From: an uncultured Candidatus Saccharibacteria bacterium
GTDB lineage: Bacteria; Patescibacteriota; Saccharimonadia; Saccharimonadales; JBBQAJ01
Length of the DNA stretch: 64,000 nucleotides
Direction of reading: 5' to 3'
NCBI GenBank assembly: GCA_964593805.1
Contig: CAZQHP010000001.1
Location: forward strand, 453,283 to 517,282
The position numbers were made by a program, and so were the translations under genes. Below the pieces are notes generated by a model. It saw only the letters and a list, made by a program, of their open reading frames with translations. It did not search any database and was not told the origin of the DNA. Below are positions 58 through 63,660 of the stretch, in pieces (position 1 is the first letter of the stretch; every line of letters begins with the position of its first letter).

Positions 58-2712
58 TTATTGGTTTTTGAAGAAGGTTTTTACTTCTTTGAGGTCGCGC
101 TTTTTCCAGTCTGTTTGCCACTGGAGCATTTCCAGGCCTTGTTTGTAGGAACGATCCAGGGCCAGCGACATTCTTGGCGTAAAGAATTTTTTATACTCTT
201 GCACAAATTCCGGTTCGCTAAAAACCCGCGCCGCATATATGGGCATGCGGTAAAAAGCGAGGTCCGTGCCCAAGTTTTCCTGGAGCCAGCTCCATTTGGA
301 CTGGAGCCATTTCCAGGTCTGGTACTTGGCGTGGCGGTTCAGAAAACTATAGGCAATCCAGTATGAAACATCTTGCAAGCGCACTACGTCCGAGTCAATC
401 AGCTGCAGCGCCTTGGCAATCAGTTTTGGTTGCTGAAACCCAGTCAGGGCGGCAGCTATGGTGGTGCGCTCTTCGCTGAGCGTAGACGCGTTGTGCAGTG
501 CCAGTAGTTTATCGAATTCTTTTGCTCCGCCCAGGCGGGCAACCGTGCCGAACACGGTGCCGCGGAGATCAGGGTCAATATCCATGCCGCGTTTTATCTT
601 GGTTCCGTTGGTGGTGGCGCGCAAATCAGGCGCCACATCATCTACAGCTTCAATGCTGTCAAAAAGCTGCTGGCAATGTTTTACGATTTCCGGTTCGTCA
701 GCGCTGGCCGCCAGGCCTAAGATTATAGGCCGCAGCAGCAGGTCAAAGTGGCTATCGTCTTTTTTTCGATCCCACCCCAGGCGCTCAAGCTCTGGTTTTA
801 TAAGCTTGCGGATGTACGGCTTCATATCTTCGCGCAAGCTTTCATCGTCCATGACTAGTCGCAGGCTGCCAATTGCCGAGGCAATAGAATCCCAAACCGC
901 ATAATCAGTTTCGTGAGTGAAGTGGCCAAGAAAGTACAGCGCGTCGGCCGTATCGGAGTGGCCCGCTTTGGCTGTTTCAAACAGATCGGTCAAGATGCCA
1001 AGGCGGTCCAAAGGCTCAAGGTGCCCTTTGTTGATTAGTTCGCCCAACCGCTGGACATGCGTGGCGTTGTAGGCCACGCGGTAAAAACCGCTTTGGCCCC
1101 GATTGAACTTTAGCTCTTGATGGTTCAGGGTTTCTAGCTTAGTTGTTTGTTCGGTGAGCGTACTAGGCTCCACAGAGCCGCCGAGTAGCGGCACTGGCCA
1201 AAGAGTTTTTGGTACTTTGCCGTGCTTTGGGCTGGCAAAGAAACGGGACTGCTTGATTTGTACGCCGGTTTCGTCCACGTTTACTTCCAGCAGTGGGAAA
1301 CCAGGCTGGCTGGTCCAGTCATGCATAAACTCACGCACCGGCTTGCCAGATATGTCTTCCAGGCTGGCCCACAAATCAACCGTGTCGGTATTGTTGTATT
1401 TATGGGTTGACAAGTAATGCCGCAAGCCGCCCTGAAAAGCATCATGGCCCAGGTAGTCGTGGAGCATATGGATTACGCTGGCACCTTTGCTGTAACTGAT
1501 AGCATCAAAAATGGTGCGGATTTCGTCCGGGTGGTGTACCGGCACTTCAACCGGGTGGGTGTGTTCTAGCGCGTCAAGTTTGAGCGCTTGCTGTTGTTCG
1601 TCTACGGCGAACTGTGTCCACAGCTTCCACTCCGGGAAAAGGTGGTCTATGGCCAAATACTCCATCCAGCTGGCAAAACCTTCGTTTAGCCATAAGTCAG
1701 TCCACCAGCGCATGGTAACTAGGTTGCCAAACCACTGATGCGTCAACTCGTGGGCAACAACTAGCGCAACGTACTGTTTAGTCGCCAGGGTTGAGTTTTT
1801 TGGATCAATTAGCATAGCTTGTTCGCGAAAGGTTATGCAGCCCCAGTTTTCCATGGCGCCGCTGGCAAAATCTGGCAGGGCAATCAGGTCGCATTTGGCC
1901 AGCGGGTAGTCGATACCAAAATAGTCGTTATAAAATTCCAGGCATTTTACGGCAATACCCAGTGCGAATTCCGTCAGCTCTACATTGTCCGGCGTGGCAT
2001 AAGTGCGAACCACTATGCCGTCATGTGTTTTGGCTTCTTTGTACCCCAGCTCTCCAAAAACAAACGCCAAGAGGTACGTGGACATGTGCGGCGTAGGCTC
2101 AAAGTGAGTCCTGAGCTGAGAGCTGTGAGCTGAAAGCTTTTTGCTCCGGACTCCGGACTCTGAACTCTGGACTTTTTCCTGTTTTGCAACCGGGGTATTG
2201 GATAAAACGGTTTCGTTCGCAGGGTGGGTCAGGGATAGCTCAAACACTGCTTTGGCTTCTGGTTCGTCAATGCATGGGAAAACTTCGCGGGCGTGATGGC
2301 TTTCAAACTGCGTGGCAATCAGCTTTTTCTCTTTGCCGTCATGTTCAAAAAAGCACGGGTACACGCCGTTCATCTGCCGCGACACCACGCCTTCAAACTC
2401 TAGGCGGACGGTGTATAGTCCGGCGTGTAGCAGGTGTTTGGCGTGCAGGCGTACTTCGTCAAAGGTTTTATGATGGTTGATTCTGTCTATTTCAACCTCA
2501 TGGTCGCCTTTTTTGTCATGGCGAGTTACGTGGCAAGCCGTGACTTTGAGTCCATTCTGGTGAAACGTCAGGCGCTGGCTGGGCCGTCCTAACCGCTGTC
2601 CATTTATGATTACCATACCGCTAAAAACCATGTTTTCACGGTCAACGTCAATGTCTAAGACATATTTCTTAGGCTGAAACTGCGCAAACAGCCGTTTTAC
2701 ATTTCTAGTCAT
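58..2712 (-). CDS. pepN: Aminopeptidase N, M1 zinc metallopeptidase
   Basis: ORF 58..2763. Carries GAMENWG, HELTHQWFGNLVT (HExxH) and WLNEGFA. I prefer the ATG at 2712 (MTRNVKRLF) over the TTG at 2763 because a TGtTAAACT extended -10 lies 7 nt upstream of it. Confidence 0.9.
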   Translation of the reverse strand: MTRNVKRLFAQFQPKKYVLDIDVDRENMVFSGMVIINGQRLGRPSQRLTFHQNGLKVTACHVTRHDKKGDHEVEIDRINHHKTFDEVRLHAKHLLHAGLYTVRLEFEGVVSRQMNGVYPCFFEHDGKEKKLIATQFESHHAREVFPCIDEPEAKAVFELSLTHPANETVLSNTPVAKQEKVQSSESGVRSKKLSAHSSQLRTHFEPTPHMSTYLLAFVFGELGYKEAKTHDGIVVRTYATPDNVELTEFALGIAVKCLEFYNDYFGIDYPLAKCDLIALPDFASGAMENWGCITFREQAMLIDPKNSTLATKQYVALVVAHELTHQWFGNLVTMRWWTDLWLNEGFASWMEYLAIDHLFPEWKLWTQFAVDEQQQALKLDALEHTHPVEVPVHHPDEIRTIFDAISYSKGASVIHMLHDYLGHDAFQGGLRHYLSTHKYNNTDTVDLWASLEDISGKPVREFMHDWTSQPGFPLLEVNVDETGVQIKQSRFFASPKHGKVPKTLWPVPLLGGSVEPSTLTEQTTKLETLNHQELKFNRGQSGFYRVAYNATHVQRLGELINKGHLEPLDRLGILTDLFETAKAGHSDTADALYFLGHFTHETDYAVWDSIASAIGSLRLVMDDESLREDMKPYIRKLIKPELERLGWDRKKDDSHFDLLLRPIILGLAASADEPEIVKHCQQLFDSIEAVDDVAPDLRATTNGTKIKRGMDIDPDLRGTVFGTVARLGGAKEFDKLLALHNASTLSEERTTIAAALTGFQQPKLIAKALQLIDSDVVRLQDVSYWIAYSFLNRHAKYQTWKWLQSKWSWLQENLGTDLAFYRMPIYAARVFSEPEFVQEYKKFFTPRMSLALDRSYKQGLEMLQWQTDWKKRDLKEVKTFFKNQ
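2106..2182 (-). repeat. Heptanucleotide-periodic tract inside the pepN coding sequence (11 x 7 nt)
   Basis: Top strand reads GAGTCCT GAGCTGA GAGCTGT GAGCTGA AAGCTTT TTGCTCC GGACTCC GGACTCT GAACTCT GGACTTT TTCCTGT. The sense strand reads AGTCCAG AGTTCAG AGTCCGG AGTCCGG and encodes KVQSSESGVRSKKLSAHSSQLR. Confidence 0.7.
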
Positions 2713-2785: not shown

Positions 2786-2797
2786 AGTAGCTGTTCG

Positions 2798-2823
2798 ATC
2801 CGGCCACTATGGTCGGATTTTTT
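2798..2823 (+). terminator. Intrinsic terminator/attenuator hairpin in the nusA leader
   Basis: ATCCGGCC-actat-GGTCGGAT forms 8 bp including one G-U, followed by TTTTT. It lies just downstream of the 2757 promoter and 150 nt before the nusA start. Confidence 0.6.
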
Positions 2824-2840
2824 CATAGATATGGTACAAA

Positions 2841-2952
2841 ATGCTCAATGCTCAAGTGTCAATGATCAATGAATGTAAAAATGTTTAAAATCATTCAATG
2901 CATCAATACATTGACCATTCATTGAACAATGACCATTGATAATTGAACATTA
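2841..2952. repeat. Heptamer-periodic imperfect palindrome (16 x 7 nt) in the nusA leader
   Basis: The left arm is ATGCTCA ATGCTCA AGTGTCA ATGATCA. The right arm is TTCATTG AACAATG ACCATTG ATAATTG. TCAATGA and TCATTGA are complementary words kept in 7-nt register. Confidence 0.75.
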
Positions 2953-2974
2953 ATTTCGACGAAGGAGAAATGAA

Positions 2975-4237: not shown

Positions 4238-4311
4238 AAGGGAAAAGAGCAGCCCGCCAAAATGTATTCCATTTTGCCGGCGCGATGAGAAAAACCGCAA
4301 GTTTGTCTCAT
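4238..4311 (+). repeat. Double-hairpin repeat element, copy A (clpC 5' UTR)
   Basis: aaGGGAAAAGAGCAGCCCG, hairpin 1 (CCAAAATG-tattc-CATTTTG), GGCGCG, hairpin 2 (ATGAGAaAAAC-cgcaa-GTTTgTCTCAT). Confidence 0.8.
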
Positions 4312-13557: not shown

Positions 13558-14418
13558 ATGCCAAAAACAACCAAAAAAAATGCAGCTAGGGGAGAGCAGC
13601 CCGAGAGGCGGATTCATTCCGCCCCCGGCGCGTTGAGAGGGGATGTTCCCCTCTCAAAAGCGAAGCGCAAAAAAGCAGATCAGTACGACGAAGGCGGGTA
13701 CAATTACCTCCGTTATTGGGATGGGCGCGATTACGAACACGCGTCTGAAGAAATGGCCATAAAGCGGTTGCTCAAAGGCAAGCACTTTAAAACCGCCGTG
13801 GATATTGGCGGCGGCTACGGCCGACTCTGCGTTTTTTTGGAAAACTTCGCGGACAAAGTTACTCTGGCGGAGCCGTCTAAACAGCAGCTGGAAATTGCCA
13901 AAGATTTTCTAAAAGGCCACCCGGAAATTGACCAAGTGCTCACCCAGGCAGACGATATTAAACTGGCTGATAAGTCGCAAGAACTAATCACGATGATCCG
14001 CGTGATGCACCATTTGCCCAGCCCGCGCGAAGAATTCAAAGAACTGCACCGTGTGTTAAGTGACGACGGCTACCTACTGCTAGAAGTTGCCAACTACGGC
14101 CATGCTAGGAATCGCATAAAACACATTGTTCGCTTCAAGAGCCTGCCTAGCGAACCGGTAGACATCCGCTCACCTGAAAATAGAAACGACGCCGAAATAT
14201 CTTTTGTAAACCACAACCCCCGCACGGTGGTAAAGCAGCTGGCTCATGCCGGCTTCAAAGTAGAAAGGGTCTTGTCCGTATCAAACCTGCGTAGCCCCAG
14301 CCTCAAAAAAATTCTCCCTCGTGGAATAATGCTCAGCCTGGAAAAGATCATGCAGCCAACCCTGGCCAAAACCTACTTTGGCCCCAGTATTTTCTTCCTG
14401 ATTCGCAAAGCGAAGTAG
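13558..14418 (+). CDS. Class I SAM-dependent methyltransferase (start uncertain)
   Basis: VDIGGGYGR is the motif I glycine loop. The first ~37 codons read through repeat copy D. There is no alternative in-frame ATG before the conserved YDEGGYNYLRYW region; an in-frame TTG lies at 13633. Confidence 0.7.
   Translation: MPKTTKKNAARGEQPERRIHSAPGALRGDVPLSKAKRKKADQYDEGGYNYLRYWDGRDYEHASEEMAIKRLLKGKHFKTAVDIGGGYGRLCVFLENFADKVTLAEPSKQQLEIAKDFLKGHPEIDQVLTQADDIKLADKSQELITMIRVMHHLPSPREEFKELHRVLSDDGYLLLEVANYGHARNRIKHIVRFKSLPSEPVDIRSPENRNDAEISFVNHNPRTVVKQLAHAGFKVERVLSVSNLRSPSLKKILPRGIMLSLEKIMQPTLAKTYFGPSIFFLIRKAK
13588..13668 (+). repeat. Double-hairpin repeat element, copy D (inside the 5' end of the methyltransferase ORF)
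   Basis: AGGGGAGAGCAGCCCG, aga, hairpin 1 (GGCGG-attcatt-CCGCC), GGCGCG, hairpin 2 (TTGAGAGGGGA-tgt-TCCCCTCTCAA), AAGCGAAGCGC. Confidence 0.8.
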
Positions 14419-14685: not shown

Positions 14686-16722
14686 ATGACGTTGGATAGC
14701 CCGGCTACGGAGATTAAAGGTGTGGGGGGTGAAGTTGCCAAGAAATTGGCCGTTTTGGGCGTGAAAACGGTTTCTGAACTTATTGATTACTACCCGCGGA
14801 GGTACGACGATTATTCAGACGTATTAGCAATCAACCAAATCAAACCAGGGCCAGTTACTATAAAAGCTACAGTCAAATCTTCTGCCAGGCGGTACGCGCG
14901 CAGGGGATTGCACATAACTGAAGCGGTTGCCAGTGACGCAACCGGCAGCGTGCGGCTGGTTTGGTTCAATCAGCCGTATCGGGCGGCTTCGCTCAAGGCC
15001 GATCAGGAATACTACATTTCCGGCGAGTTTGGTTTGAATTATCAGCGGTTGAGTATCCAAAATCCGTCCATAGAACTTGTCAGCAATTTTCCGATTAATA
15101 CGGCGCGGATTGTGCCTGTTTACCGCGAAACCAAAGGACTCAAATCGGCACAGATTCGGCGGGCAATCCGTGAAACGCTGCCGGTTTTGCGCCAACTCTC
15201 AGAAACGTTGCCCCCGTGGCTGGTAAACGAAGAACGGCTGATGGCTCGAGCTGAAGCCGTGGAGCAGATTCATTTTCCATCCAGCCCAGACGACTTATTG
15301 GCGGCCAAGCGCCGGTTGGGGTTTGAGGAAGTGTTTGAGCTCACGTTGGCGGCGCTACTAAATAAATACGAGCTTATGCAAGAGGTTGCAGTAGCAATCC
15401 CTTTTGAAGAAAAACTGGCGCGGAGCTTTGTAAAACATCTGCCATTTCACCTGACAGACGACCAAAAACGGGTGATTTGGCAAATTTACCAGGACATGCA
15501 GAAAACCCAGCCTATGAACCGGCTGGTTGAGGGCGACGTAGGTTCCGGGAAAACCGTTGTGGCCGCCATGGCCGCGGTCATGGCTATGGAGCACGGCTTT
15601 CAGGCCGCGCTGATGGCGCCTACCGAACTGCTGTCTCGCCAGCACGCCGAGACAATTTATAAATTGCTTGAACCGCTTGGTTTGCACGAACAGGTCGGCT
15701 TGCTGGTCGGAGGGCTCAAGCCAGCTCAAAAAATTGCCGCTCAAAAACGCATCGCCGCTGGTGACATACGATTCATGATTGGCACCAACGCGCTCATCCA
15801 GGAAAAAGTAGACATGCACAAACTTGGCCTGGTAGTGATAGACGAACAGCACCGTTTTGGGGTGGAACAGCGCAAAAAGCTGCAAGCCAAAGCCGGACAC
15901 ATGCCGCATGTGCTAAGCATGACGGCCACACCTATCCCGCGCAGCCTGGCGCTGACGCTGTACGGCGAACTTGACGTATCGGTAATCAGTACCAAGCCAG
16001 CCAATCGCAAGCCAATTCAAACGGACCTAGTACCATTGGTCGGCCGCCAAAAGGTGTATGCGGAGGTTGATAAAGAGCTGGCAGCCGGCCGCCAGGTATT
16101 TGTGGTCTGTCCGCTTATCAGCGAATCAGACCTCATGCCCGCTAAATCTGCCGAACAAGTATATAAAGAACTAACAAGCGGCCCATTCAAACACCGCCGC
16201 GTAGGCTTGCTGCACGGCAAAATGAAACCGGCCGAAAAAGACGCTGTCATGCAATCGTTTGTCCAGCACAACCTGGACCTGCTTGTTTCCACTACTGTTA
16301 TAGAGGTTGGCGTGGATGTGCCTAACGCCACGGTTATGATTATAGAAAACGCTGAGCGGTTTGGCTTGGCACAAATTCATCAACTGCGCGGCCGGGTTGG
16401 ACGGAGCCATCACAAAGGCTACTGCTACCTGTTGCTGAGCGATAACCAAGCTCCCACTCGCCGGCTGCGAGCCCTGGAACAATCTTCGGACGGCTTCAAG
16501 CTGGCCGAATATGACCTGGAACTGCGCGGCCCGGGCGCTATCTACGGCACCGTGCAGCATGGCCAGCTGGATTTGCGCGTAGCTAAACTAACGGACACCA
16601 AACTTATAGCCGCCGCCCGCAAACGGGCTCAAGAATTTATAGATAAGCGCGAAAATTTGCTAGAATATAAACAGCTATGCGAACGAGTGAAAGCTAATCG
16701 TTCGGTCACAAATTTAAATTGA
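14686..16722 (+). CDS. recG: ATP-dependent DNA helicase RecG
   Basis: Has a wedge/OB N-terminal domain, Walker A GDVGSGKT and DEQHRFG. The ORF track starts at TTG 14680, and the first ATG is at 14686. Confidence 0.92.
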   Translation: MTLDSPATEIKGVGGEVAKKLAVLGVKTVSELIDYYPRRYDDYSDVLAINQIKPGPVTIKATVKSSARRYARRGLHITEAVASDATGSVRLVWFNQPYRAASLKADQEYYISGEFGLNYQRLSIQNPSIELVSNFPINTARIVPVYRETKGLKSAQIRRAIRETLPVLRQLSETLPPWLVNEERLMARAEAVEQIHFPSSPDDLLAAKRRLGFEEVFELTLAALLNKYELMQEVAVAIPFEEKLARSFVKHLPFHLTDDQKRVIWQIYQDMQKTQPMNRLVEGDVGSGKTVVAAMAAVMAMEHGFQAALMAPTELLSRQHAETIYKLLEPLGLHEQVGLLVGGLKPAQKIAAQKRIAAGDIRFMIGTNALIQEKVDMHKLGLVVIDEQHRFGVEQRKKLQAKAGHMPHVLSMTATPIPRSLALTLYGELDVSVISTKPANRKPIQTDLVPLVGRQKVYAEVDKELAAGRQVFVVCPLISESDLMPAKSAEQVYKELTSGPFKHRRVGLLHGKMKPAEKDAVMQSFVQHNLDLLVSTTVIEVGVDVPNATVMIIENAERFGLAQIHQLRGRVGRSHHKGYCYLLLSDNQAPTRRLRALEQSSDGFKLAEYDLELRGPGAIYGTVQHGQLDLRVAKLTDTKLIAAARKRAQEFIDKRENLLEYKQLCERVKANRSVTNLN

Positions 16723-16726
16723 ATAG

Positions 16727-16803
16727 TGAAAAATGAAAAGTGAATAACACAAATCTAAAATCGCAAACATTCTCTTTTCACATTTCTCTTTTCACATTTC
16801 GGG
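16727..16803. repeat. Heptamer-periodic hairpin tract (11 x 7 nt) downstream of recG
   Basis: GTGAAAA ATGAAAA GTGAATA ACACAAA TCTAAAA TCGCAAA CATTCTC TTTTCAC ATTTCTC TTTTCAC ATTTCGG. The arms GTGAAAA and TTTTCAC are complementary. Confidence 0.75.
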
Positions 16804-16816
16804 AGCGAAGCGACTA

Positions 16817-30795: not shown

Positions 30796-30842
30796 GTTAA
30801 AAGTTACGACATCTGTTAAAGTTAACAAGTTAAAAGTTTCGC
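30796..30842. repeat. GTTAAAA-word low-complexity tract downstream of rpoC
   Basis: GTTAAAA-like words begin at 30796, 30803, 30815, 30821, 30829 and 30836. The spacings are 7, 12, 6, 8 and 7, so the periodicity is looser than in the other tracts. Confidence 0.4.
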
Positions 30843-30861
30843 TAATTTTTCTCTGAAGCTC

Positions 30862-30930
30862 AGGGGAGAGTAGCCAGCCAAAATGTATTCCATTTTGCCT
30901 GCGCGATGAGAGGGGATGTTCCCCTCTCAT
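30862..30930 (+). repeat. Double-hairpin repeat element, copy B (upstream of rpsL)
   Basis: AGGGGAGAGtAGCCaG, hairpin 1 (CCAAAATG-tattc-CATTTTG), ccTGCGCG, hairpin 2 (ATGAGAGGGGA-tgt-TCCCCTCTCAT). Confidence 0.8.
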
Positions 30931-31005
30931 GAGTGTTACATAAGCAGTCTGAGCCGAGCGTATGGCATTCGCTCGCCGCGGTAGATTGCAAATCAAAGGA
31001 GTAAA

Positions 31006-36551: not shown

Positions 36552-37058
36552 ATGGCGGAGGCCAAGAAGAAGGTAGAAAGTAGCAAGCAGAAAGTAGCAA
36601 GCAAAGCTACAAAAACCAACCCAAAGAAGCCAAAGGCAGAAAAGCCGGTTCAAGCACCAGCAGAGGCTGTAGCAGAGCCAGTGGCGGAAACCAAACCTAC
36701 GGTTATGGTCGCAAAACCCGCTAAGCAAACTCACGGTAAAACAGAGCCAGCAGCCAAACAGCGCATCCGGATTCGTCTGAAGGCTTATGACCACAAAGTT
36801 ATAGACCAGTCTACCAAACAGATTGTAGACGTAGCACTGCGTACCGGCGCCACAATTGCCGGGCCAATCCCGCTGCCAACCAAAAAGACTACTTACACCG
36901 TGGTCAAAAGCCCTCATGTGTTCAAAAAGGGCCGTGAGCAGTTTGAAATGCGCGTCCACAAACGCCTAATAGATGTTTTCGACCCAACCCCCAAGACAAT
37001 TGACTCACTAATGAACCTCTCACTACCAGCAGGTTGTGATGCAGAGATTAAAATGTAA
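36552..37058 (+). CDS. rpsJ: 30S ribosomal protein S10 with a ~65-aa K/A/P-rich N-terminal extension
   Basis: ATG at 36552 follows AGGAG at 36541. The S10 core begins at [13 protein letters not shown]. The extension contains a 14-nt tandem duplication. Confidence 0.9.
36576..36603 (+). repeat. 14-nt tandem duplication inside the S10 N-terminal extension
   Basis: GAAAGTAGCAAGCA occurs twice. That is 2 x 14 nt, not a multiple of 3. Confidence 0.8.
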
Positions 37059-37147: not shown

Positions 37148-37564
37148 ATGGCAAACGCTTTTCCCGAAGGAACACCAACTGACACAGAGTTCACGGAAGA
37201 AGTTTTGGCGGGTGTGGGCGAAGCTGATTCTTTCCTATTTACCGAATTGCTTGCAATTGCGCTCGAAAGTCAACAAGACGAACAAACCGACGATGATCTG
37301 ACAGAAGCCCAGCGTGAGCAAGAGGCTTGGGCTGAACTGGTTGAGATAGCCGAAATGCCAGAACGCGAACAAAGAATGCATGTTTTGAAAAAACAACTCG
37401 TGGCCGGCATTGAATTTGATACAACCATGTTTGGCGTACCCGTACTCGTAACCCCAATCGATGACATACCACCACCAATGCCACCATTTGAGCCTGACAG
37501 TGAACCACTCCAGCCCATACCAACACCTCCTAGTTTGCAACCCCACGTAGATGCGAGCATATGA
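37148..37564 (+). CDS. Hypothetical acidic, Pro-rich protein
   Basis: 138 aa with SD AGGAG upstream. ATGA overlap with the next gene. Confidence 0.5.
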   Translation: MANAFPEGTPTDTEFTEEVLAGVGEADSFLFTELLAIALESQQDEQTDDDLTEAQREQEAWAELVEIAEMPEREQRMHVLKKQLVAGIEFDTTMFGVPVLVTPIDDIPPPMPPFEPDSEPLQPIPTPPSLQPHVDASI

Positions 37565-38031
37565 AACGGTTTGTTATTCGGCATGGGCATACTGGGGTTA
37601 CGCGAGATGGACGGGCTGCGTTTGGCGCGGCTGGGCCGCCACTGAGTAAGTTGGGGCAAAAGCAGGCTGCCGAGCTCAAACAAGCTTTGCTGAAGCTGGG
37701 AGTAAACTTTGACACAGAGCCGGTGGCTGTGTCTGAGTTTTTGCGGACCAAGCAAACCGCTCAGCTAGCAGGCTTTCAGAACTTGCACGTAAGTCCAGTG
37801 CTGAACGAAATTTTTACCGGCATGCCGGGCGCGGAACTCAAAGCCTTGCTTGAGCTCAGGCAGCTTCCACCAATAGTTATACAAAAGGCGCGGGCAATTC
37901 TGGACAATCCGCCCAAAGAACGGGTTTGGATAACGCACGGTTTGGTGATTATGGGGCTGCGTGAAGTATTGGGCGTAAAAAGCGATCCGTTTGATCCTTT
38001 GCACTGCAGTATTCTTGAGGTAGATGGCTAG
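37561..38031 (+). CDS. Histidine phosphatase family protein (SixA/PGAM-like)
   Basis: 156 aa. Has the N-terminal RHG motif (FVIRHGHTG) and a distal H (ITHGLV). Confidence 0.7.
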   Translation: MKRFVIRHGHTGVTRDGRAAFGAAGPPLSKLGQKQAAELKQALLKLGVNFDTEPVAVSEFLRTKQTAQLAGFQNLHVSPVLNEIFTGMPGAELKALLELRQLPPIVIQKARAILDNPPKERVWITHGLVIMGLREVLGVKSDPFDPLHCSILEVDG

Positions 38032-38058
38032 CAACTCCTTGCATAAAGTGGCGAAAAG

Positions 38059-38067
38059 TGGTATATT
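38059..38067 (+). promoter_or_regulatory. Extended -10 promoter (TGgTATATT), 10 nt before the ATG at 38078
   Basis: aagTGgTATATTttactaaattATG. No SD is present. Confidence 0.5.
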
Positions 38068-38077
38068 TTACTAAATT

Positions 38078-38518
38078 ATGTCGGATTTTGAGCGCAAAGT
38101 GTCTAATAATCCAGTTGAATATGCCCGGGGTGTTATTTTTTCTGCCCAGAATGAAGTTTTGCTGTTAGAACGAGCCGGCGAACATAGCACTGGCTTGTGG
38201 GAGTGTCCCGGTGACGTACTAGATCTTGGAGAATCATTTGAAATGGCACGCTACCGCGCAATCTACGAAAAAACCGGTTTAGAAGTAATCCGTTTCCCAT
38301 CGCCTCAACCCGACTTTGTAATTGAGTACGGTCAGCGCCGGACAGAGTTCAGCCTTGTGCGAGTGTTTGGCGGAGAGCTTAGGCTGAACCCCCAAGAAAA
38401 CTCCGGATACATTTATGCCGATCCCCGAACAGTTCTGGATCGTGATTTAGCACCAGATACTCAAGCGGCGCTTAAATACTACGCCCCATCATTTCAGCAG
38501 CTAAAACCTCTCGAATAA
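38078..38518 (+). CDS. NUDIX-family hydrolase with a degenerate Nudix box
   Basis: 146 aa. GDVLDLGESFEMARYRAIYEKTGL aligns to Gx5Ex7REUxEExGU, but RE is replaced by RA and EE by EK. Confidence 0.7.
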   Translation: MSDFERKVSNNPVEYARGVIFSAQNEVLLLERAGEHSTGLWECPGDVLDLGESFEMARYRAIYEKTGLEVIRFPSPQPDFVIEYGQRRTEFSLVRVFGGELRLNPQENSGYIYADPRTVLDRDLAPDTQAALKYYAPSFQQLKPLE

Positions 38519-38600
38519 TTACCTAAAAATAAGTTGCTACCAAATTGGTTATACTTGCGCTACAATCAACTTGTATAGTTAATGAGGCTTATAAAAACAC

Positions 38601-38999
38601 ATGACAGAAATTGCACGGGTGCCTGCTGAGCGGATGTCCGTTTGCGAGCTGCGTGAATTGTTTGCACATGTGCAGGGCGAAGGTGCGCAGCCGTTTGGCG
38701 ATGAGCTTGCTCTGGAGCTGGGCCGCCCCGAAGCGGTGGCTTGCACAACCCAAGAGCCAGGCTATCCGTGGTATGGTAATTTTTTGCTTCAGCTTTGCAG
38801 CGACTCCGAAGTAGTTAAATTTACTCGCCTCAAGCCCGACCGGCGACAAGGTTTTTTGATTGATAGGTTTCAGCAAGAGCCAGGGCGTGTGGGCGGGGAC
38901 GTCTTGCGAATAGGTAGCCGGGCGCTGATTTTGTGCCCGCAGACGCTGGACGCAACAATCAATAGAACATTGCCAGTCACAAGCATCCGCTACATATGA
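38601..38999 (+). CDS. Hypothetical protein
   Basis: 132-aa ORF. I recognise no motif. Confidence 0.4.
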   Translation: MTEIARVPAERMSVCELRELFAHVQGEGAQPFGDELALELGRPEAVACTTQEPGYPWYGNFLLQLCSDSEVVKFTRLKPDRRQGFLIDRFQQEPGRVGGDVLRIGSRALILCPQTLDATINRTLPVTSIRYI

Positions 39000-39045
39000 G
39001 ATTGGTTAGTTTGCATAAGCGGAATGAATCCTGTTCAATGTAGCC

Positions 39046-39318
39046 ATGGCCAAACAAAAAACCCCAGCGCAGGAACTTGACGGCGTGTACATACTCAAAA
39101 TTGTTTTGTATCTGATAATTGGCGCGCAGTGGGTCAGGCTGGTAGATCCCGCCCTGACCAAACAGATACCTTTGCCGCTAGGCCTGGTTGTAGGAGCTAT
39201 GTTTGCCATGCATGAACATTTCCAAATTGACCGCAAGATTGAATTCGCTATCCTGCTCATAGCCTGCTTTGTAGGCTTCTGGTCGCAAACCGGGCTGCTT
39301 ATAGCAATCCTCAATTAG
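39046..39318 (+). CDS. Hypothetical small membrane protein
   Basis: 90 aa with three hydrophobic segments. Confidence 0.45.
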   Translation: MAKQKTPAQELDGVYILKIVLYLIIGAQWVRLVDPALTKQIPLPLGLVVGAMFAMHEHFQIDRKIEFAILLIACFVGFWSQTGLLIAILN

Positions 39319-43906: not shown

Positions 43907-43980
43907 AAGGGAAAAGAGAGCCCGAGACTTGAGCTTTGCTCAAGCACGGCGCGATGAGAAAAACCGTAGGTTTGTCTCAT
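43907..43980 (+). repeat. Double-hairpin repeat element, copy C (between rpmC and rpsQ)
   Basis: aaGGGAAAAGAGAGCCCG, aga, hairpin 1 (CTTGAGC-ttt-GCTCAAG), caCGGCGCG, hairpin 2 (ATGAGAaAAACC-gta-GGTTTgTCTCAT). Confidence 0.8.
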
Positions 43981-44002: not shown

Positions 44003-44419
44003 ATGGCTAAGACACTCACCGGTGTTGTATCAAGCGACCGCGCCGACAAAACAATTGTCGTTACAGTGCGGACCCGTAAAACACACCCTATTTACAAGAA
44101 ACAATATACCGTCAGCACAAAATTCATGGCACACGACGAGCAGAATGAAGCCAAGCTGGGCGACCAAGTCATAATCAGCGAAACTCGTCCTATATCTGCC
44201 CGCAAGCGCTTCATGCTGGAAAAAGTGCTTGAGCGCGCCGTAATCCGCCATGAAGAACCCGAAGAGACCGAAAAGCCTAAAGATACAAAGAAAAAGACTG
44301 AAGTGAATACCTCAGAGTCGCCAGTCGAAAGTCCAAAGTCAAAAGTAAAAGAATCTGGGACAAAACTAAAGACTAGCGACAAGAAACTAAAGACTGCGAA
44401 GCCGGAGGCGGAGTTATGA
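44003..44419 (+). CDS. rpsQ: 30S ribosomal protein S17 with a ~55-aa K/E/S-rich C-terminal extension
   Basis: 138 aa. The S17 core ends near LERAVIRH. The tail is encoded by a heptamer-periodic tract. Confidence 0.93.
44316..44399 (+). repeat. Heptamer-periodic tract encoding the S17 C-terminal tail
   Basis: AGTCGCC AGTCGAA AGTCCAA AGTCAAA AGTAAAA GAATCTG GGACAAA ACTAAAG ACTAGCG ACAAGAA ACTAAAG ACTGCGA. Confidence 0.75.
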
Positions 44420-45116: not shown

Positions 45117-45754
45117 TGGCTACAGCTGAAAAAGTCCAAAGTCCAAAGTCCACCCGTGCGGCAAGCTCAGGGTCTTCGAAAGTCCAAAGTACTACGCCTA
45201 TTTCATCTGCCCGACTAAAGGCTCTATACCAGTCGCAGTACTCAGCCGAGCTTCTGAAAGAACTCGGTTTGAAAAACGTCAACCAATTGCCTCTCCTGGA
45301 AAAAATCGTTCTAAATGTCGGGCTGGGTAAGGCTAAAGATGACAAAAAAGTCATTGCCACCGCCGAAAACACCCTGGCCAAGATTACCGGCCAGAAGCCG
45401 ATTGAAACCACCGCCAAACTATCTATTGCCGGATTCAAGCTCCGTGAAGGCAACAAAATTGGCTCAAAGGTCACACTCCGCGGCGACCGCATGTACGAGT
45501 TTATGGACCGGCTCATTAACATCGTATTGCCCAGGCTGCGCGATTTCCACGGGGTAAAGCTAAAGGCATTTGATAAATCAGGCAATTTCAGCATTGGCAT
45601 CAATGACCAGTCCGTTTTTCCGGAGCTGACTTTTGAAGAAACAACTACGGTTCATGGCTTACAAGCAGTGTTTGTAATCCGCTGCCACGAACCTTTGCAC
45701 GCTAAAGCATTGCTGGAAAAATTCGGCATGCCCTTCGAAAAAGGAGATAAATAA
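45116..45754 (+). CDS. rplE: 50S ribosomal protein L5 with a ~30-aa N-terminal extension
   Basis: 212 aa. The L5 core begins at RLKALYQ. The extension is encoded by AGTCCAA repeats. Confidence 0.94.
45133..45194 (+). repeat. AGTCCAA heptamer repeats encoding the L5 N-terminal tail
   Basis: AGTCCAA AGTCCAA AGTCCAc at 45133-45153, and AGTCCAA AGTACTA at 45181-45194. Confidence 0.8.
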
Positions 45755-47004: not shown

Positions 47005-47361
47005 ATGGAACGATTACAGAAAAAAGTGCAAAATCTGGCACGTAGACGCCACCGCGTTCGTACTAAAGTTACAGGGACTTCTGCACGCCCGCGTTTGACG
47101 GTTTTTATTAGTAACCTGAATGTGACAGCTCAAATTGTTGACGACACAAAGCACGCCACATTGGTATACGTAACGAGTGTTGGCAATAAGTCCGCAACCG
47201 GGACTATGACTGAGCGTGCTGTGCTGATTGGTAAGGAGATTGCTGAAAAAGCAAAAGCAGCCAAGATTAAACAAGTAGTATTTGACCGCAACGGCCGCCT
47301 GTATCACGGTCGCATTAAAGCTCTTGCAGACGCTGCTCGGGCAGGAGGATTGGAGTTCTAA
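47005..47361 (+). CDS. rplR: 50S ribosomal protein L18
   Basis: 118 aa. Has RPRLTVF and YHGR. Confidence 0.95.
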
Positions 47362-47362
47362 T

Positions 47363-47986
47363 ATGGCTGAATTTGGACAAGACCGAGGCAACCGCCCCAA
47401 CCGCGATAATCGCCGCGACGGTATGCAAGAAGAAAAACAATTTGACGAACGAGTCGTTCACATTGACCGCGTAGCCCGCGTAGTTAAGGGCGGCCGCCGC
47501 TTCCGCTTCCGAGCGCTAGTGGTGGTAGGCGACCACAAGGGCAAAGTGGGCATTGGCATTGCTAAAGGCGCGGACGTAACTTCTGCTGTCACAAAGGCGG
47601 TGGACGTTGCCAAAAAGCATTTTGTGACCATTCATATAGTCAACGGTACTGTTCCGCACGAATCAGAGGTCAAAGTGGGCGGTGCGCGGATTTTAATTAA
47701 ACCAGCCGTACTTGGTACCGGTTTGATAGCCGGAGGAGTTGTTCGCACGGTTCTGGAAGTAACCGGTATCAGCAACGCGTTGTCCAAATCACTCGGCTCT
47801 AGTAATAAAATCAACACCGCTTACGCCACTCTCGCCGCGCTTCAAGCTATAGAGCATCCGGACAAATGGATTACCAAGCAAGGCAAAAAAGCTAACAGCA
47901 AACAGTTGACAGCTGACAGCAAAGAAACTAAAAAACTGGCGACCAGTGGCAAGTCACTGGCTACCGCTCCCAAGGAGTCCACATGA
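47363..47986 (+). CDS. rpsE: 30S ribosomal protein S5 with basic N- and C-terminal tails
   Basis: ATG at 47363 (MAEFGQDRG) follows SD GGAGG. Has VVKGGRRFRF. The ORF-track start at 47282 overlaps rplR. Confidence 0.94.
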   Translation: MAEFGQDRGNRPNRDNRRDGMQEEKQFDERVVHIDRVARVVKGGRRFRFRALVVVGDHKGKVGIGIAKGADVTSAVTKAVDVAKKHFVTIHIVNGTVPHESEVKVGGARILIKPAVLGTGLIAGGVVRTVLEVTGISNALSKSLGSSNKINTAYATLAALQAIEHPDKWITKQGKKANSKQLTADSKETKKLATSGKSLATAPKEST

Positions 47987-48453
47987 AATTTCATGAGCTA
48001 AACGTCACATCAAACAGCGCCTCTCGGCGCGTTGGGCGCGGTATAGCTGCTGGCCAAGGTAAAACGGCTGGCAGGGGTACAAAGGGACAAAAGTCCCGTG
48101 CCGGCAGCGGCCGCCGTCCTGGCTTTGAAGGCGGCCAAAACCCCCTGATGCAACGCCTGCCAAAATTGCGCGGGTTTCGCAGCAACCGTGTGGCCATGGA
48201 AACTGTATACACGGGCCAATTAGACAACTTGGGGGCAACAATAGACAACTTTACGCTCGCAGACGCCGGGCTTATCACCAGCCCCTATGTGCGCGTTAAA
48301 TTAGTGGTAAAGGGCGATGTTGCAAAAAAAGTGACTGTTAAGTTGCAGGCAGCCAGCGTTTCTGCCGTAGAGGCTTTGCAAAAGCATGGCGGCAGCTTCC
48401 AGGCAACACCGCAAGTAGCCCGCCAAAAACAAGAAAAACCAGAAAAGAAGTAA
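47983..48453 (+). CDS. rplO: 50S ribosomal protein L15
   Basis: 156 aa. Has GRGIAAGQGKTAGRGTKGQ. It follows rpsE directly, with no L30 gene between them. Confidence 0.95.
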   Translation: MKFHELNVTSNSASRRVGRGIAAGQGKTAGRGTKGQKSRAGSGRRPGFEGGQNPLMQRLPKLRGFRSNRVAMETVYTGQLDNLGATIDNFTLADAGLITSPYVRVKLVVKGDVAKKVTVKLQAASVSAVEALQKHGGSFQATPQVARQKQEKPEKK

Positions 48454-54321: not shown

Positions 54322-54403
54322 CGGCTTCGCCTTATGAGAGGGGAATATCCCCTCTCATCGCGCCGGCAAAATGGAATACATTTTGGCGGGCTGCTCACCC
54401 CTA
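54321..54403 (-). repeat. Double-hairpin repeat element, copy E (inverted orientation, abutting the rpsI stop)
   Basis: The reverse complement reads AGGGGtGAGCAGCCCG, hairpin 1 (CCAAAATG-tattc-CATTTTG), ccGGCGCG, hairpin 2 (ATGAGAGGGGA-tat-TCCCCTCTCAT), AAGGCGAAGCCGC. Confidence 0.8.
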
Positions 54404-54416
54404 AGACATAAAAAGG

Positions 54417-60770: not shown

Positions 60771-61940
60771 ATGCAAAAACAAGTCAGAGAAACAGCTACG
60801 ACTAAAAATAAAGTCGTAGCCTCGGCCAAACTGCTCGCGCACGCTGTCAAAAGCAACATTACGCCAAACGTGGGGCTGGAACGCGAACGCTTAACCAGCC
60901 TGATAAACAGCATGGGGGACGGCGTACTGGCCATAGACGAAAAGTTCAAAATAGTAGTCAGCAACGGCGCCGCACTTAACATTTTGGATGTTAACACCAC
61001 TCTAACCGGCAAAAAGCTCAGCGACGTACTGCATATGTTGGATAAAAATAACCACGAGCTGGATCTCATAGAACTAATTTCTAAGACCCGGACATCCCAC
61101 GCTTCCCGAGAATGGCGTATAAAATATTCAGACGGCAGCACTGTGAACCTGTACGTTAGCATAGCGCCAGTCCGCTTAGGCTTCGGCCAACAAGGTATGA
61201 GAGGCTACGTAATCCTGCTACGTGATATTACGCGCGAAAAGTCGCTGGAAGAAGAACGAGACGAGTTTATCAGCGTGGTCAGCCATGAACTCCGCACGCC
61301 TATAGCTATAGCCGAAGGCAACATTGGCAACGCGGAATTTATTTTGGAAAAATCGGGACTTGCCAACAAAGAAATTCAAGGCGCGCTGCAACAAGCCCAT
61401 GATCAGGTGGATTTTTTGGCTGGTTTGATAAATGATTTGGCCACCCTGTCTCGAGCCGAACGCGGCAAACTGCAAGTGGACGTAGAGTCTATCAACGCCT
61501 ATGAGCTGCTCAAAGATTTATTGGCAAACTACACCCCGCAGGCCGAAGCAAAAAAACTCACAATATCATGCCAGCCTGACCCCAAACTTGAACTACTGCT
61601 GTCATCCAAACTGTACGTTCGAGAAATATTGCAAAACTTTATAACCAACGCCATCAAATACACCGAAAAAGGCGGCGTGAGCATAAGCGCCAGCTCCAAA
61701 CCAAATGGCATTGAATTCCGGGTCAGCGACACGGGGATTGGCATCAGCAAGCCCGACCAAGAAAAAGTGTTTGAGAAATTTTTCCGGTCCGAAGATTACC
61801 GCACTCGGCAAAATACCGGCACGGGACTGGGCCTGTACGTAACCATGAAACTAGCCAGTCTAATCCACGCGAAAATAAGCGTAGAAAGCGAACTCAACAA
61901 AGGCTCCACCTTCACAATCTTTATCCCTAACCTGCAGTAA
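60771..61940 (+). CDS. Sensor histidine kinase (PAS, HisKA, HATPase_c), apparently cytoplasmic
   Basis: Has the H-box SHELRTP, N-box and G-boxes (DTGIGI, GTGLGL). I see no TM segment. The ORF-track start is ATG 60765. Confidence 0.85.
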   Translation: MQKQVRETATTKNKVVASAKLLAHAVKSNITPNVGLERERLTSLINSMGDGVLAIDEKFKIVVSNGAALNILDVNTTLTGKKLSDVLHMLDKNNHELDLIELISKTRTSHASREWRIKYSDGSTVNLYVSIAPVRLGFGQQGMRGYVILLRDITREKSLEEERDEFISVVSHELRTPIAIAEGNIGNAEFILEKSGLANKEIQGALQQAHDQVDFLAGLINDLATLSRAERGKLQVDVESINAYELLKDLLANYTPQAEAKKLTISCQPDPKLELLLSSKLYVREILQNFITNAIKYTEKGGVSISASSKPNGIEFRVSDTGIGISKPDQEKVFEKFFRSEDYRTRQNTGTGLGLYVTMKLASLIHAKISVESELNKGSTFTIFIPNLQ

Positions 61941-62066
61941 AGCTCAAAATCCAAAATCCAAAGTTCAGATAAATACCAAGTCTCAAACGGGCTAGCTAGA
62001 ACTAGGTTTGGTATTTGAGATTTTGAAGTTTATTTGGAACTTGAAGTTTGAACTCTGGACTTTTCC
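61941..62066. repeat. Heptamer-periodic tract (18 x 7 nt) between convergent genes, running into the glycosyltransferase 3' end
   Basis: AGCTCAA AATCCAA AATCCAA AGTTCAG ... central CTAGCTAG ... AGGTTTG GTATTTG AGATTTT GAAGTTT ATTTGGA ACTTGAA GTTTGAA CTCTGGA CTTTTCC. Confidence 0.75.
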
Positions 62067-63544
62067 TCGTCTAGCGAAGGCAGACGAGGAATTACGTGCA
62101 TGACGGGGATGCAGATATTGCGGTCTTTCCAAGCCACGGTGAAAAACTCGTATTGGATCATGGAGGCGTAGCCAACCGCAAGTTCGCTAAAAGCAGCCAC
62201 GGGAAAGCTCAGTAATGCCAATAAACTGTTGGCCGGGTCAGTAATGTTCACTATTGAAACATGGGCAATCACTAGCAACAGGCAAGTGAGCCCCGCAACC
62301 AGCGGGTTGATTGAAGCTGCCCATATGCTGGCTGCCAAAAATACGAATGGCAATAACAAAAACAACACGTTTATAACGGTGATTATCAGCGCCCACTCCG
62401 GCCGCCGGCGAATCTGCGGGTAACGGTTACGAATCGCGGAAGCGTATTGCTGGTGAAAGTTTTTGGCGGTTTTTACTTCCAGCTCGCCGCTGCTGCGGAC
62501 AAAGCTGTATTTATCTGTTTTGACAAGTTCGCGCGCAAAGTATCCTTCTGGCAATATAGTATGGCTGACGGCCGCGAAACCGCCGTATCTTTTCAAATCG
62601 TCACGATCAATCATCCAGCAGGTACCAAGCACAGAAGGCTTGTTAAACAACCGTCGTGGCAAAGCCAGTTCCCACCAGTAGCGCATGGGCTGGAAAAACG
62701 CGTCCGCCAGCGAGCTTTGGCTTCTGACCGGGAGCACGCTCAACATGGTCTTTTTGCGGGCGGCGAGCAAATTTACCATGCTGCGGATAGCGTGCGGGCC
62801 AAACCGGGCGTCCGCGCCGCAAAAAAGCACTAAATCACCACTGGTCTCCCTGTAAAGCTGCTGGTAAGCCTGGTTTTTTGCCAGCCAGCGCTCGGCGGGT
62901 GGTTCGCCCTGTACAAACCGCACGCCATCTTGGGCAAAGCTTTTGATAATTTCGGCAGTTTTACCCTGTGAACAGTCGTCTAGCACTATAATTTCCAACT
63001 TTGGGTAATCATTGGCCAAAACGGTGCGTAAACACTCCTGTAGGTCGGTGCTCTCATTGCGGGCCGGTATGGCCACGGTTACGGTCGGCAGCTCGCGGTC
63101 TGGCAAAAACGTGTCGGGCGGTTTGTAACGGAGTTTATAAATATTACGCGTCACTATCGCTAAAATTGCTGCTGCAACCGCCAGCTGCAGCACCGCGAAG
63201 CCCTGCGTATATGAGCTACCCAACAAAGTAAAATACAGTATAAGCAAAACAACCGCCAGGGGATGCAGGAAAAACAACCGCAGGCTGGTGCGCCCCGTTG
63301 ACTGCTTTAAGTATTGTGCATGCATGCGATTTTTGACAATCCTGAGCATGTTGCCCCCGCGAAATACCGCCAAAAGCCCGAACGGTACGGCCAGAAACAG
63401 CCCCAATTGAACTACTAGCCAGCCAGATGTAACCAGTATCAAAACAGTAATCAGCGCCGCCAGAAACCGCCGCGCGCGCCAAAGCGGCCCAACCAAAAGC
63501 AGGCTGCCTTCTGCTATAAACGACATAAACCAAAGCTCAAGCAT
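62030..63544 (-). CDS. Family 2 glycosyltransferase, polytopic membrane protein
   Basis: 504 aa. Has N-terminal and C-terminal TM bundles. The GT2 core is VAIPARNE...IIVLDDCS. Confidence 0.8.
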   Translation of the reverse strand: MLELWFMSFIAEGSLLLVGPLWRARRFLAALITVLILVTSGWLVVQLGLFLAVPFGLLAVFRGGNMLRIVKNRMHAQYLKQSTGRTSLRLFFLHPLAVVLLILYFTLLGSSYTQGFAVLQLAVAAAILAIVTRNIYKLRYKPPDTFLPDRELPTVTVAIPARNESTDLQECLRTVLANDYPKLEIIVLDDCSQGKTAEIIKSFAQDGVRFVQGEPPAERWLAKNQAYQQLYRETSGDLVLFCGADARFGPHAIRSMVNLLAARKKTMLSVLPVRSQSSLADAFFQPMRYWWELALPRRLFNKPSVLGTCWMIDRDDLKRYGGFAAVSHTILPEGYFARELVKTDKYSFVRSSGELEVKTAKNFHQQYASAIRNRYPQIRRRPEWALIITVINVLFLLLPFVFLAASIWAASINPLVAGLTCLLLVIAHVSIVNITDPANSLLALLSFPVAAFSELAVGYASMIQYEFFTVAWKDRNICIPVMHVIPRLPSLDEEKSRVQTSSSK

Positions 63545-63564
63545 ACTCAGGCTCTATAATACCT

Positions 63565-63613
63565 CAGCTTTTAGCTTTTGTACTTTACACTTTTCACCTT
63601 ATGCGTTATATTG
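63565..63613. repeat. Heptamer-periodic tract (7 x 7 nt)
   Basis: CAGCTTT TAGCTTT TGTACTT TACACTT TTCACCT TATGCGT TATATTG. Confidence 0.6.
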
Positions 63614-63660
63614 ACAACTGGCGAACCTATAAATTAGGTTCTTTTTATTTGGAGAAACAC

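Follow-up and report, generated by a model that had tools for sequence, protein, structure and literature searches.

Heptanucleotide repeats are over-represented in a 64,000-nt stretch of DNA from an uncultured Candidatus Saccharibacteria bacterium (contig CAZQHP010000001.1, positions 453,283 to 517,282), referred to below as the window. The most conspicuous is a long hairpin in the 5′ untranslated region of nusA, whose arms are made of 7-nt units and which has a second copy in the leader of rplJ. Other tracts fill spacers or are translated as parts of proteins. They are probably heptanucleotide repeats akin to the short tandemly repeated repetitive (STRR) sequences of cyanobacteria, expanded by slippage, recurring as dispersed word families and tolerated at permissive sites. 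The DNA analysed amounts to about 82 kb (the 64-kb window and adjoining parts of its contig) of a host genome of at least 777 kb. Compared loci and contigs carry L-numbers (L001, L087, L174, etc.), and all that is said of function is deduced from sequence.

The period-7 signal

Tandem Repeats Finder (TRF) reports 30 arrays in the window, 13 of them with period 7 and four with period 14. The same period emerges from a lag-identity scan, in which tracts are called from a sliding 42-nt window with at least 60% identity between positions at a given lag. Nine tracts are found at lag 7, as against none or one each at lags 5, 6 and 8, while 100 block-wise (local) dinucleotide shuffles of the window yield 0.58 ± 0.67 tracts at lag 7, with a maximum of three. 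At a second threshold, lag 7 gives 12–15 tracts and the other lags that are not multiples of three give 0–3. Identity at lag 7 is also elevated in the pooled intergenic DNA of 5.3 kb (z = +3.0; −0.7 to +0.1 for lags 4, 5, 6 and 8). The period-7 signal is not due to chance. An initial annotation of this DNA, made from the sequence alone, had pointed out several intergenic hairpins with heptamer-phased arms and proposed a comparison with dinucleotide shuffles as the check on them; in the window, the excess over such controls is real.

Five of the ten tract loci lie in non-coding DNA, which is an enrichment since such DNA makes up ~8% of the window, and the other five lie inside open reading frames (ORFs). 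The initial description of the tracts as intergenic is incomplete: the five inside genes had been overlooked, the arm found after recG starts within recG, and the right arm of the locus between a histidine-kinase (HK) gene and a GT2 glycosyltransferase gene is coding. The gene contexts were correctly given as the nusA leader, the region after recG and a gap between convergent genes, and at these three loci the arms are indeed complementary. Two further segments listed as hairpins, 63565–63613 and 30796–30842, are not confirmed as such. When the register is laid out in rows of seven, about 4–5 periodic units per arm are seen and the centres are aperiodic, so that the 16, 11 and 18 units counted initially were overstated. 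All three two-arm non-coding loci have inverted, not direct, arms.

Certain words recur. Those of the AAAGTCC type occur at five places (2155–2178, 44328–44346, 45131–45152, 61946–61964 and 62034–62061). The tract in an M1 aminopeptidase gene and the tail of the GT2 gene have a 16-nt exact string in common, and the S17 tail and the L5 N-terminus have 15 identical nt in common. TRF also detects perfect, recent tandem duplications of 7 or 14 nt at 16770–16800, 36575–36603, 45131–45152 and 61945–61962.

The nusA leader hairpin and its second copy

Two features of the nusA leader have to be distinguished:
2839–2955, forward strand: hairpin element in the nusA 5′ untranslated region (lag-7 tracts at 2828–2882 and 2908–2953; fold; second copy).
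2797–2826, forward strand: conserved GC-rich leader hairpin followed by six T residues, attenuator-like and with no heptamer tract (flagged by the terminator scan as 2797–2819 plus T6).

The arms of the heptamer hairpin occupy 2840–2875 (TCAATGN units) and 2916–2951 (NCATTGA units). This agrees with what had been read at 2841–2952, namely ATGNTCA units in the left half, NNCATTG units in the right half and complementarity between the two. The segment 2830–2960 is predicted to fold at −30.9 kcal/mol (z = −2.8; 3 of 200 shuffles are as good) into one hairpin, with ~29 outer pairs in helices of 4–5 bp and regular small internal loops between them. The hairpin lies 3′ of the conserved attenuator-like hairpin and 5′ of the ribosome-binding site (RBS) AAGGAG at 2962–2967, the GTG start codon being at 2975.

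A promoter-like site (2757–2785) is found just 5′ of the conserved leader hairpin. A promoter followed by the motif of this hairpin, YCGGCC-loop-GGTCGR-T6, precedes nusA in every relative examined (L001–L016 and L087–L143 included), even where NusA identity is as low as 63%. The hairpin resembles a leader attenuator and may take part in NusA autoregulation. The spacer between this hairpin and the nusA RBS measures ~20 nt in L001, L004, L005 and L007 and ~145 nt in the window, where it is mostly heptamer hairpin. At this spot, L003 and L113 have single-arm tracts of AAWTG-type heptamers.

The second copy is located in the rplJ leader, at L174 21029–21145, on the same contig and ~7 kb past the end of the window. 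The two copies are ~85% identical over ~115 nt, including the aperiodic centre. With the flanks included, mean column identity is 81% over 169 columns, and both arms and much of the centre align. The homology spans AATG(C/A)TCAAT to GAACATTAA, and no direct repeat or target-site duplication is visible beside either copy. The rplJ copy is found just 5′ of the rplJ RBS and just 3′ of a full-length but sub-threshold match to L10_leader (39.1 bits against a gathering score of 44, E = 0.0011), the end of which is a hairpin with a T-run. A related copy precedes radA in L113 (nhmmer, E = 8e-9). In the viral contigs searched for the element, only chance-level seed matches and no full-length copy were found. 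The nusA and rplJ copies are not separated by a clean 7-nt indel, since their centres differ by 8 + 1 nt.

The two copies differ at 6 of 77 paired and at 19 of 37 unpaired positions (Fisher P = 4.6e-7), and the differences within the arms nearly all fall at the variable unit positions that form internal loops. This sparing of the predicted stem shows constraint on stem pairing or on the heptamer core, which coincide and are not separable here. The initial proposal for 2841–2952, expansion of a 7-mer followed by decay, is thus too simple, since the hairpin is a dispersed element with at least two copies that differ nearly only at predicted unpaired positions.

No compensatory base-pair changes are seen among the three homologous hairpin copies. 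Moreover, the antisense RNA folds as stably as the sense RNA or more so for all hairpins of the window. Since there are no compensatory changes and the sense fold has no advantage, the palindromes look as if they were DNA-level or strand-neutral rather than tuned in mRNA. G–U strand asymmetry, considered as a sign of selection at the RNA level, was rejected for the same want of a sense-strand advantage. Rfam 15 recognizes only five tRNAs in the window, and the region 2740–2990 gives only sub-threshold hits to miRNA-precursor-like hairpins.

Other non-coding tracts

Four further segments outside, or partly outside, genes were considered:
16708–16806, forward strand: inverted arrays in the spacer between recG and the next gene (TRF, lag-7 scan, fold).
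61935–62068, no strand assigned: inverted arrays between the convergent HK and GT2 genes (lag-7 scan, fold).
63556–63611, no strand assigned: single-arm heptamer tract in the divergent GT2/secE region, overlapping a promoter-like site at 63584–63612 (lag-7 scan).
30796–30842, forward strand: the "looser example" of the initial annotation, supported neither as a period-7 tract nor as a hairpin (TRF period 8; fold z = −0.7).

The recG tract starts in the last recG codons (stop codon 16720–16722). Its left arm, (ARTGAAA)n, pairs at 16726–16744, and its right arm, in which the 14-mer TTCTCTTTTCACAT occurs twice in perfect form, pairs at 16777–16795. The fold has a z-score of −1.9 for 16700–16815 and of −2.4 for the spacer alone. 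At the HK/GT2 locus, the left arm (AGCTCAA, AATCCAA, AATCCAA, AGTTCAG) starts directly after the histidine-kinase stop, and the right arm (antisense AGTCCAG, AGTTCAA, etc.) covers the last 12 GT2 codons (stop codon 62030–62032). Folding of 61935–62075 gives z = −1.8 with a diffuse, poorly defined ensemble. The single-arm tract at 63556–63611 reads, on the antisense strand, AAGGTGA, AAAGTGT, AAAGTAC, AAAAGCT, AAAAGCT (fold z = −1.1). The segment 30796–30842 is not flagged at lag 7 at either threshold of the scan.

The secE–nusG genes are preceded by a promoter, a hairpin plus T-run (hairpin 63623–63641) and an RBS, all within 63584–63661 of the window. The same layout recurs before rplJ (L174 20869–21012).

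A second dispersed family of modular hairpins, GC-rich in this case, is represented in the window at 4247–4311, 13588–13660, 30859–30933, 43947–43980 and 54326–54405. Copies elsewhere, other genera included, are L172 22499–22544, L168 1688–1733 and L120 6260–6313. The sites are intergenic after nusA and before a Clp ATPase gene, before rpsL, before rpsQ and after rpsI, and the copy at 13588–13660 lies inside a predicted ORF (13558–14418). The modules are GGCAAAATG-TATTC-CATTTTGCC, TGAGAGGGG-ATG-TTCCCCTCTCA and ATGAGAAAAACCGCAAGTTTGTCTCAT, joined by GGCGCGATGAGA. The family has no Rfam match and is not followed by a T-run.

Tracts inside genes

The five coding tracts are the following:
2097–2190, reverse strand: M1 aminopeptidase gene (Pfam M1 domains), with ~10 heptamer units in one register; the strongest lag-7 tract (0.74).
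36556–36612, forward strand: ribosomal protein S10, heptamer/14-mer tract (AGAAAGT AGCAAGC, twice) forming part of a ~72-residue N-terminal extension (TRF, lag-7 scan).
44304–44396, forward strand: ribosomal protein S17, units AGTCGCC, AGTCGAA, AGTCCAA, AGTCAAA, AGTAAAA, then a looser repeat (lag-7 scan).
45118–45152, forward strand: N-terminus of ribosomal protein L5, three perfect AAAGTCC units (TRF, 3.1 copies at 100%).
47877–47936, forward strand: C-terminal tail of ribosomal protein S5, units AGCTAAC, AGCAAAC, AGTTGAC, AGCTGAC, AGCAAAG (lag-7 scan).

In the sense direction, the M1 units are AGTCCAG, AGTTCAG, AGTCCGG, AGTCCGG, AGCAAAA, AGCTTTC, AGCTCAC, AGCTCTC and AGCTCAG. The corresponding loop exceeds that of most orthologues by 15 residues (6–15 across those examined; the loop of L027 is longer). 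The Pfam domain of S10 covers residues 81–175 only of an ORF whose gene is called as 168 aa, and L5 is called as 212 aa. The S17 tract encodes part of a 65-residue C-terminal tail, and the end of this ORF overlaps the start of rplN; within the clade, S17 homologues are 89–139 aa long. Because three units of 7 nt make seven codons, the arrays are read in all three frames in turn and give peptides with a 7-residue period. In the S10, S17 and S5 tracts, the frame in use is the only one free of stop codons.

Orthologous AGTCNNN tracts are present in the S17 tails of L167 (AGTTGCC, AGTCACC, AGTCACC) and L168 (AGTCACC, AGTTTCC, AGTCAAC, AGTCACC). The tail has five units both in the window and in L167, and positions 5–7 of the units have changed together within each species. 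In L167, the closest S17 relative, a further heptamer tract, (AAATTGT)n, separates rpmC from rpsQ (19–71), where the window has a GC-rich modular hairpin.

The ribosomal protein operons show other insertions. In the window, five non-ribosomal genes lie between rpsJ and rplC (37148–39318), encoding a histidine phosphatase, a NUDIX hydrolase and three proteins with no Pfam match. The operon of a relative (L168 6511–15192, and L169) contains nine small ORFs of 38–117 aa, mostly acidic, with no Pfam match and not made of heptamer tracts. They abut or overlap their neighbours and are located between L23 and L2, L2 and S19, L22 and S3, L14 and L24, L24 and L5, L5 and S14 (two ORFs), S8 and L6, and S5 and L15. 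The rpmD gene (L30) is absent between rpsE and rplO of the window (47282–48453), where the S5 ORF overlaps the start of L15; loss of L30 has been reported in bacteria of the Candidate Phyla Radiation (CPR), with which this absence is consistent.

Distribution among relatives

The host is a CPR bacterium. The closest genome by NusA is a Candidatus Saccharimonadales metagenome-assembled genome (MAG; 92% identity), and the 80 best genome matches to NusA are nearly all labelled Saccharibacteria/Saccharimonadales or Patescibacteria. A 776,748-bp European Nucleotide Archive (ENA) contig, k139_508325, contains the window at 100% identity (at about 703,316–767,315), and Logan contigs of SRR8863434 match it equally well; the DNA is identical in three assemblies. 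Differences in gene length between two of these assemblies proved to be gene-calling differences only. All contigs retrieved by exact-protein look-ups with NusA, L14, the M1 peptidase and the histidine kinase match the window at 100% identity, none of them being a strain-level relative, and the best relative in a metagenome scan with RadA has 81% RadA identity. In the short ENA contig L086, positions 1–246 do not match the window while the remainder is 100% identical, probably because of a chimeric assembly junction.

The same lag scan was applied to two sets of relatives. The nusA loci of the 80 best genome matches (1.5 Mb) contain 17 lag-7 tracts, about the chance rate, as compared with nine in the 64 kb of the window. 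Metagenome loci anchored on RadA (0.83 Mb) contain 37, against 0–15 for lags 5, 8, 10, 11 and 13, and these tracts are concentrated in L089/L090, L113, L144, L094/L096, L115 and L152. The heptamer trait is therefore patchy, most relatives' loci being at chance density. The consensus heptamers derived from 67 tracts are almost all different, which rules against a single heptamer motif, e.g. a binding site, across genomes. It is the period, not the word, that is common to the clade.

At orthologous sites, tracts come and go. Only 2–10 nt separate the recG stop from the next start in many relatives. In the closest ones (L087, L089, L094/L096 and L112) the spacer is 90–125 nt of period-7 filler, with words of its own in each, and folds as a hairpin in only some of them. 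A conserved recG-spacer hairpin was accordingly rejected; the periodic filler is kept and the hairpin is not. A hairpin with heptamer arms is also seen upstream of radA in L087, the nearest metagenome relative: AATTCCA/TGGAATT arms form a 130-nt structure (−45.5 kcal/mol, z = −3.7) where the spacer of the window is 17 nt. In many relatives, the spacers that the tracts occupy here are short or missing. In a distant relative, a 160-nt array of ~20 heptamers lies downstream of radA (L152 11402–11561) and consists of NNNCTGA units, exact TAACTGA among them.

Origin of the repeats

We favour, with some confidence, the interpretation of these tracts as STRR-like repeats. Short arrays would grow and turn over by replication slippage, through gain and loss of 7- or 14-nt units. 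This is suggested by the perfect 7- and 14-nt tandem copies and by the S17-tail units that changed in concert in two other species, and it lends support to the slipped-strand expansion proposed initially. The likeness to STRRs, also drawn at that stage, is supported by the specific over-representation of period 7 and by the presence of a few word families at several loci (five for AAAGTCC, two for TCAATGN). The recurring families (AAAGTCC-, TCAATGN-, AGCTGAC- and GTGAAAA-type) would have spread over the genome by some copying process, and at least one hairpin, that of the nusA leader, has been copied to another locus, the rplJ leader.

The tracts would survive only where extra sequence is tolerated, i.e. 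in 5′ leaders, at the ends of genes, in spacers within operons, in a surface loop and at ribosomal protein termini; in this last position they would be translated as low-complexity tails. They may serve no host function. Where arrays of one family stand head to head, the DNA or either transcript could fold as a long, AT-rich, imperfect hairpin, with helices of 4–5 bp and small internal loops at the variable unit positions. Pairing of such a periodic hairpin in shifted registers could itself promote slippage on both arms.

Several points weigh against this interpretation. No strain-level relatives were found in which differing unit numbers, the mark of active slippage, might be seen, and the number of units in the S17 tract is equal in the window and in L167. 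Simple slippage fails to explain a 115-nt copy at a second locus that is ~85% identical, aperiodic centre included. Nor does neutral filler predict that the nusA/rplJ differences favour unpaired (19 of 37) over paired (6 of 77) positions. That the three two-arm loci are all inverted hints at selection or at a mechanism that favours palindromes. Finally, these conclusions are drawn from ~82 kb of a genome of at least 777 kb.

Alternative explanations

A different account, possible but doubtful in our view, is that the hairpins, or at least those of the TCAATGN family, are non-autonomous mobile elements. They would resemble miniature inverted-repeat transposable elements (MITEs), repetitive extragenic palindromic (REP) doublets forming hairpins (REPINs) or Correia elements, and their arms would be recognized by a transposase encoded elsewhere. 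The 7-nt periodicity would then belong to the arms, and the tracts in genes would be a separate phenomenon. In keeping with this account, two copies with alignable arms and centre occur at non-homologous sites within 82 kb, a related copy occupies a third kind of site in the genus-level relative L113, and presence varies at the orthologous nusA leader, radA upstream region and recG spacer. The sparing of the stem would be expected if the hairpin were needed for mobilization, and the roughly equal folding of both strands suits a DNA-level palindrome. However, a target-site duplication is visible at neither copy, and no transposase, whether a REP-associated tyrosine transposase (RAYT) or one of insertion sequence (IS) type, is seen among the genes of the 82 kb. 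The known copies number only two or three, and no further copies of the recG and HK/GT2 hairpins were found. The three hairpins of the window use unrelated words rather than belonging to one family, and the same word families also form plain direct arrays inside genes.

It is unlikely that the leader hairpins are functional cis-acting RNAs that tune the expression of nusA and rplJ downstream of the attenuators, e.g. as RNase III processing sites, as 5′ stabilizers or as arrays for a single-strand RNA-binding protein (a cold-shock protein, S1 or the KH domains of NusA). The idea draws on the similar placement of both copies in two autoregulated operons, in the order attenuator-like hairpin plus T-run, element and RBS, with an L10_leader match shortly before the rplJ copy. 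Stem or core has been preserved in both copies, and L003 and L113 have AAWTG-type heptamer tracts at the corresponding position of their nusA leaders. There is also a precedent in CspB, which binds heptamer units, one protein per unit (PMC4679880). Against this, most relatives have no such element in the nusA leader, and the recG-spacer hairpin is not conserved even though the periodic filler is. The lack of compensatory changes, of an Rfam match and of any folding advantage of the sense strand, the antisense being as stable or more, points the same way.

A bolder version would make the TCAATG-core hairpin a selected, clade-specific RNA or DNA module, placed after the nusA and rplJ attenuators (and before radA in L113), with its stem or core under constraint. 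It would serve as a phased platform for binding or processing that couples the expression of transcription and translation genes, with RNase III, a cold-shock-type protein (one monomer per heptamer) or the NusA KH domains as candidate partners. Were this the case, the 7-nt period would reflect a protein footprint and not polymerase slippage. We rate it as distinctly improbable.

Very little speaks for the suggestion, made initially, that the hairpins are Rho-independent transcription terminators, and such a role is highly unlikely. All are extended stem-loops, and two of them follow genes (recG and the convergent HK/GT2 pair). However, the stems are AT-rich with too few G–C pairs, and the scan for terminators flags the conserved nusA-leader hairpin but none of the heptamer hairpins; in the HK/GT2 gap it finds no terminator-like site. 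No T-run follows any heptamer hairpin, the sequences past the stems being AATTTCGAC, TCGGGAGC and TTTTCCTCG. Both the nusA copy and the rplJ copy are placed after an attenuator and before the RBS of the gene that follows; termination just upstream of the nusA RBS would shut nusA off. The recG hairpin stands between two cistrons, at a junction that in relatives is a 2–10-nt gap with abutting or overlapping genes. Only the HK/GT2 hairpin sits at gene ends, and the hairpins are missing from the orthologous sites of many relatives. In annotation, the heptamer hairpins should not be called terminators.

An origin of the tracts in chance, as low-complexity AT-rich sequence, or in an artefact of assembly is scarcely tenable. 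The tracts are short and imperfect and their single-fold z-scores are modest (−1.8 to −2.8), but the nine tracts against 0.58 ± 0.67 in the shuffle controls already contradict this explanation, with neighbouring lags at chance level; moreover, the DNA is identical in three assemblies and other species have orthologous tracts.

Comparison with known repeat systems

The translated tracts invite comparison with the tandem repeats of Borg elements, which are reported to create disordered protein regions (PMC9879509). In both systems, fast-evolving nucleotide repeats are translated into low-complexity protein segments. The two differ in host, repeat length and scale, and the period here is not a multiple of three and is read in three frames. 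The coding tracts provide lysine-, serine- and proline-rich tails on S10, S17, L5 and S5, and thus one way in which such extensions could arise.

Correia-type MITEs are hairpin-forming miniature repeats and bear the same likeness to the present hairpins as REPINs do. REPINs (PMC3116915) are similar in that they are ~100–120 nt long, have two inverted arms, are multi-copy and intergenic or in leaders, and are co-transcribed with their neighbours. For the hairpins described here, by contrast, no target-site duplication, defined REP core or cognate transposase was seen, and 7-nt periodic arms are not known as a feature of REPINs or MITEs.

Direct repeats of TAACTGA are known from marine Beggiatoaceae, cyanobacteria and Bacteroidetes (PMC4679880). 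They resemble the present tracts in lying just upstream of start codons, in ribosomal-protein operons and sometimes at protein termini, and in their sporadic occurrence over lineages. Their word is also found, as an exact unit, in the L152 array downstream of radA. The TAACTGA repeats have one dominant word in a fixed orientation that overlaps the RBS, whereas here the words are many, the RBS is intact downstream and the arrays are often inverted.

More generally, long simple sequence repeats (SSRs) with a heptanucleotide unit are over-represented in prokaryotes; as related in two later papers, polymerase slippage was proposed as their cause and ~7 nt as a polymerase-contact length (Mrazek 2007, via PMC4679880 and PMC4692102). 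The heptamer repeats GGGGA(C/T)T of Nostoc and GGGAATC of Xanthomonas form inverted pairs and vary in length between species (PMC4692102). The tracts of the window share with such SSRs the specific over-representation of period 7, a patchy distribution, intergenic enrichment, the presence of inverted pairs and, at a given intergenic site, a length and sequence that vary among related species. They differ from the Xanthomonas and Nostoc repeats in that their units are not G-rich and form no quadruplexes, and one hairpin is itself a dispersed 115-nt repeat.

Why bacteria favour 7-nt units, and how one family comes to fill many loci, have been questions since STRRs were described. The Saccharimonadales offer a test bed, with genomes of ~0.8–1 Mb, hundreds of MAGs, strongly conserved synteny and heptamer-rich beside heptamer-poor members. 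In it, the trait could be linked to gene content, i.e. to mismatch repair, polymerase accessory factors or HUH transposases. The literature searched contains no paper linking Saccharibacteria or Patescibacteria with heptanucleotide repeats, which is weak evidence of novelty.

The closest parallel is with the STRRs themselves, heptanucleotide repeats of heterocystous cyanobacteria described in Calothrix PCC 7601, with units such as CCCCAGT, TTGGTCA and CAACAGT. Two of these, when rotated (AGTCCCC and AGTCAAC), would share the AGTCNNN form seen in the window and in L168. Common to both systems are the 7-nt unit, the spread of a few word families over many loci and the occasional inverted pairing of arrays, with the potential for stem-loops; STRRs are mostly non-coding. 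The differences are that the present host is a CPR bacterium with a tiny genome, that its arrays are short (3–5 units) and imperfect, that half of the loci lie in ORFs, ribosomal protein termini included, and that the words differ between genomes. The rpoC gene is unsplit (a 1270-aa ORF), which together with the lack of L30 between S5 and L15 and the Saccharimonadales matches places the host outside the cyanobacteria to which STRRs in the strict sense belong. What appears to be new is that, by their sequence features, these heptamer repeats resemble STRRs in a lineage beyond the cyanobacteria, the CPR.

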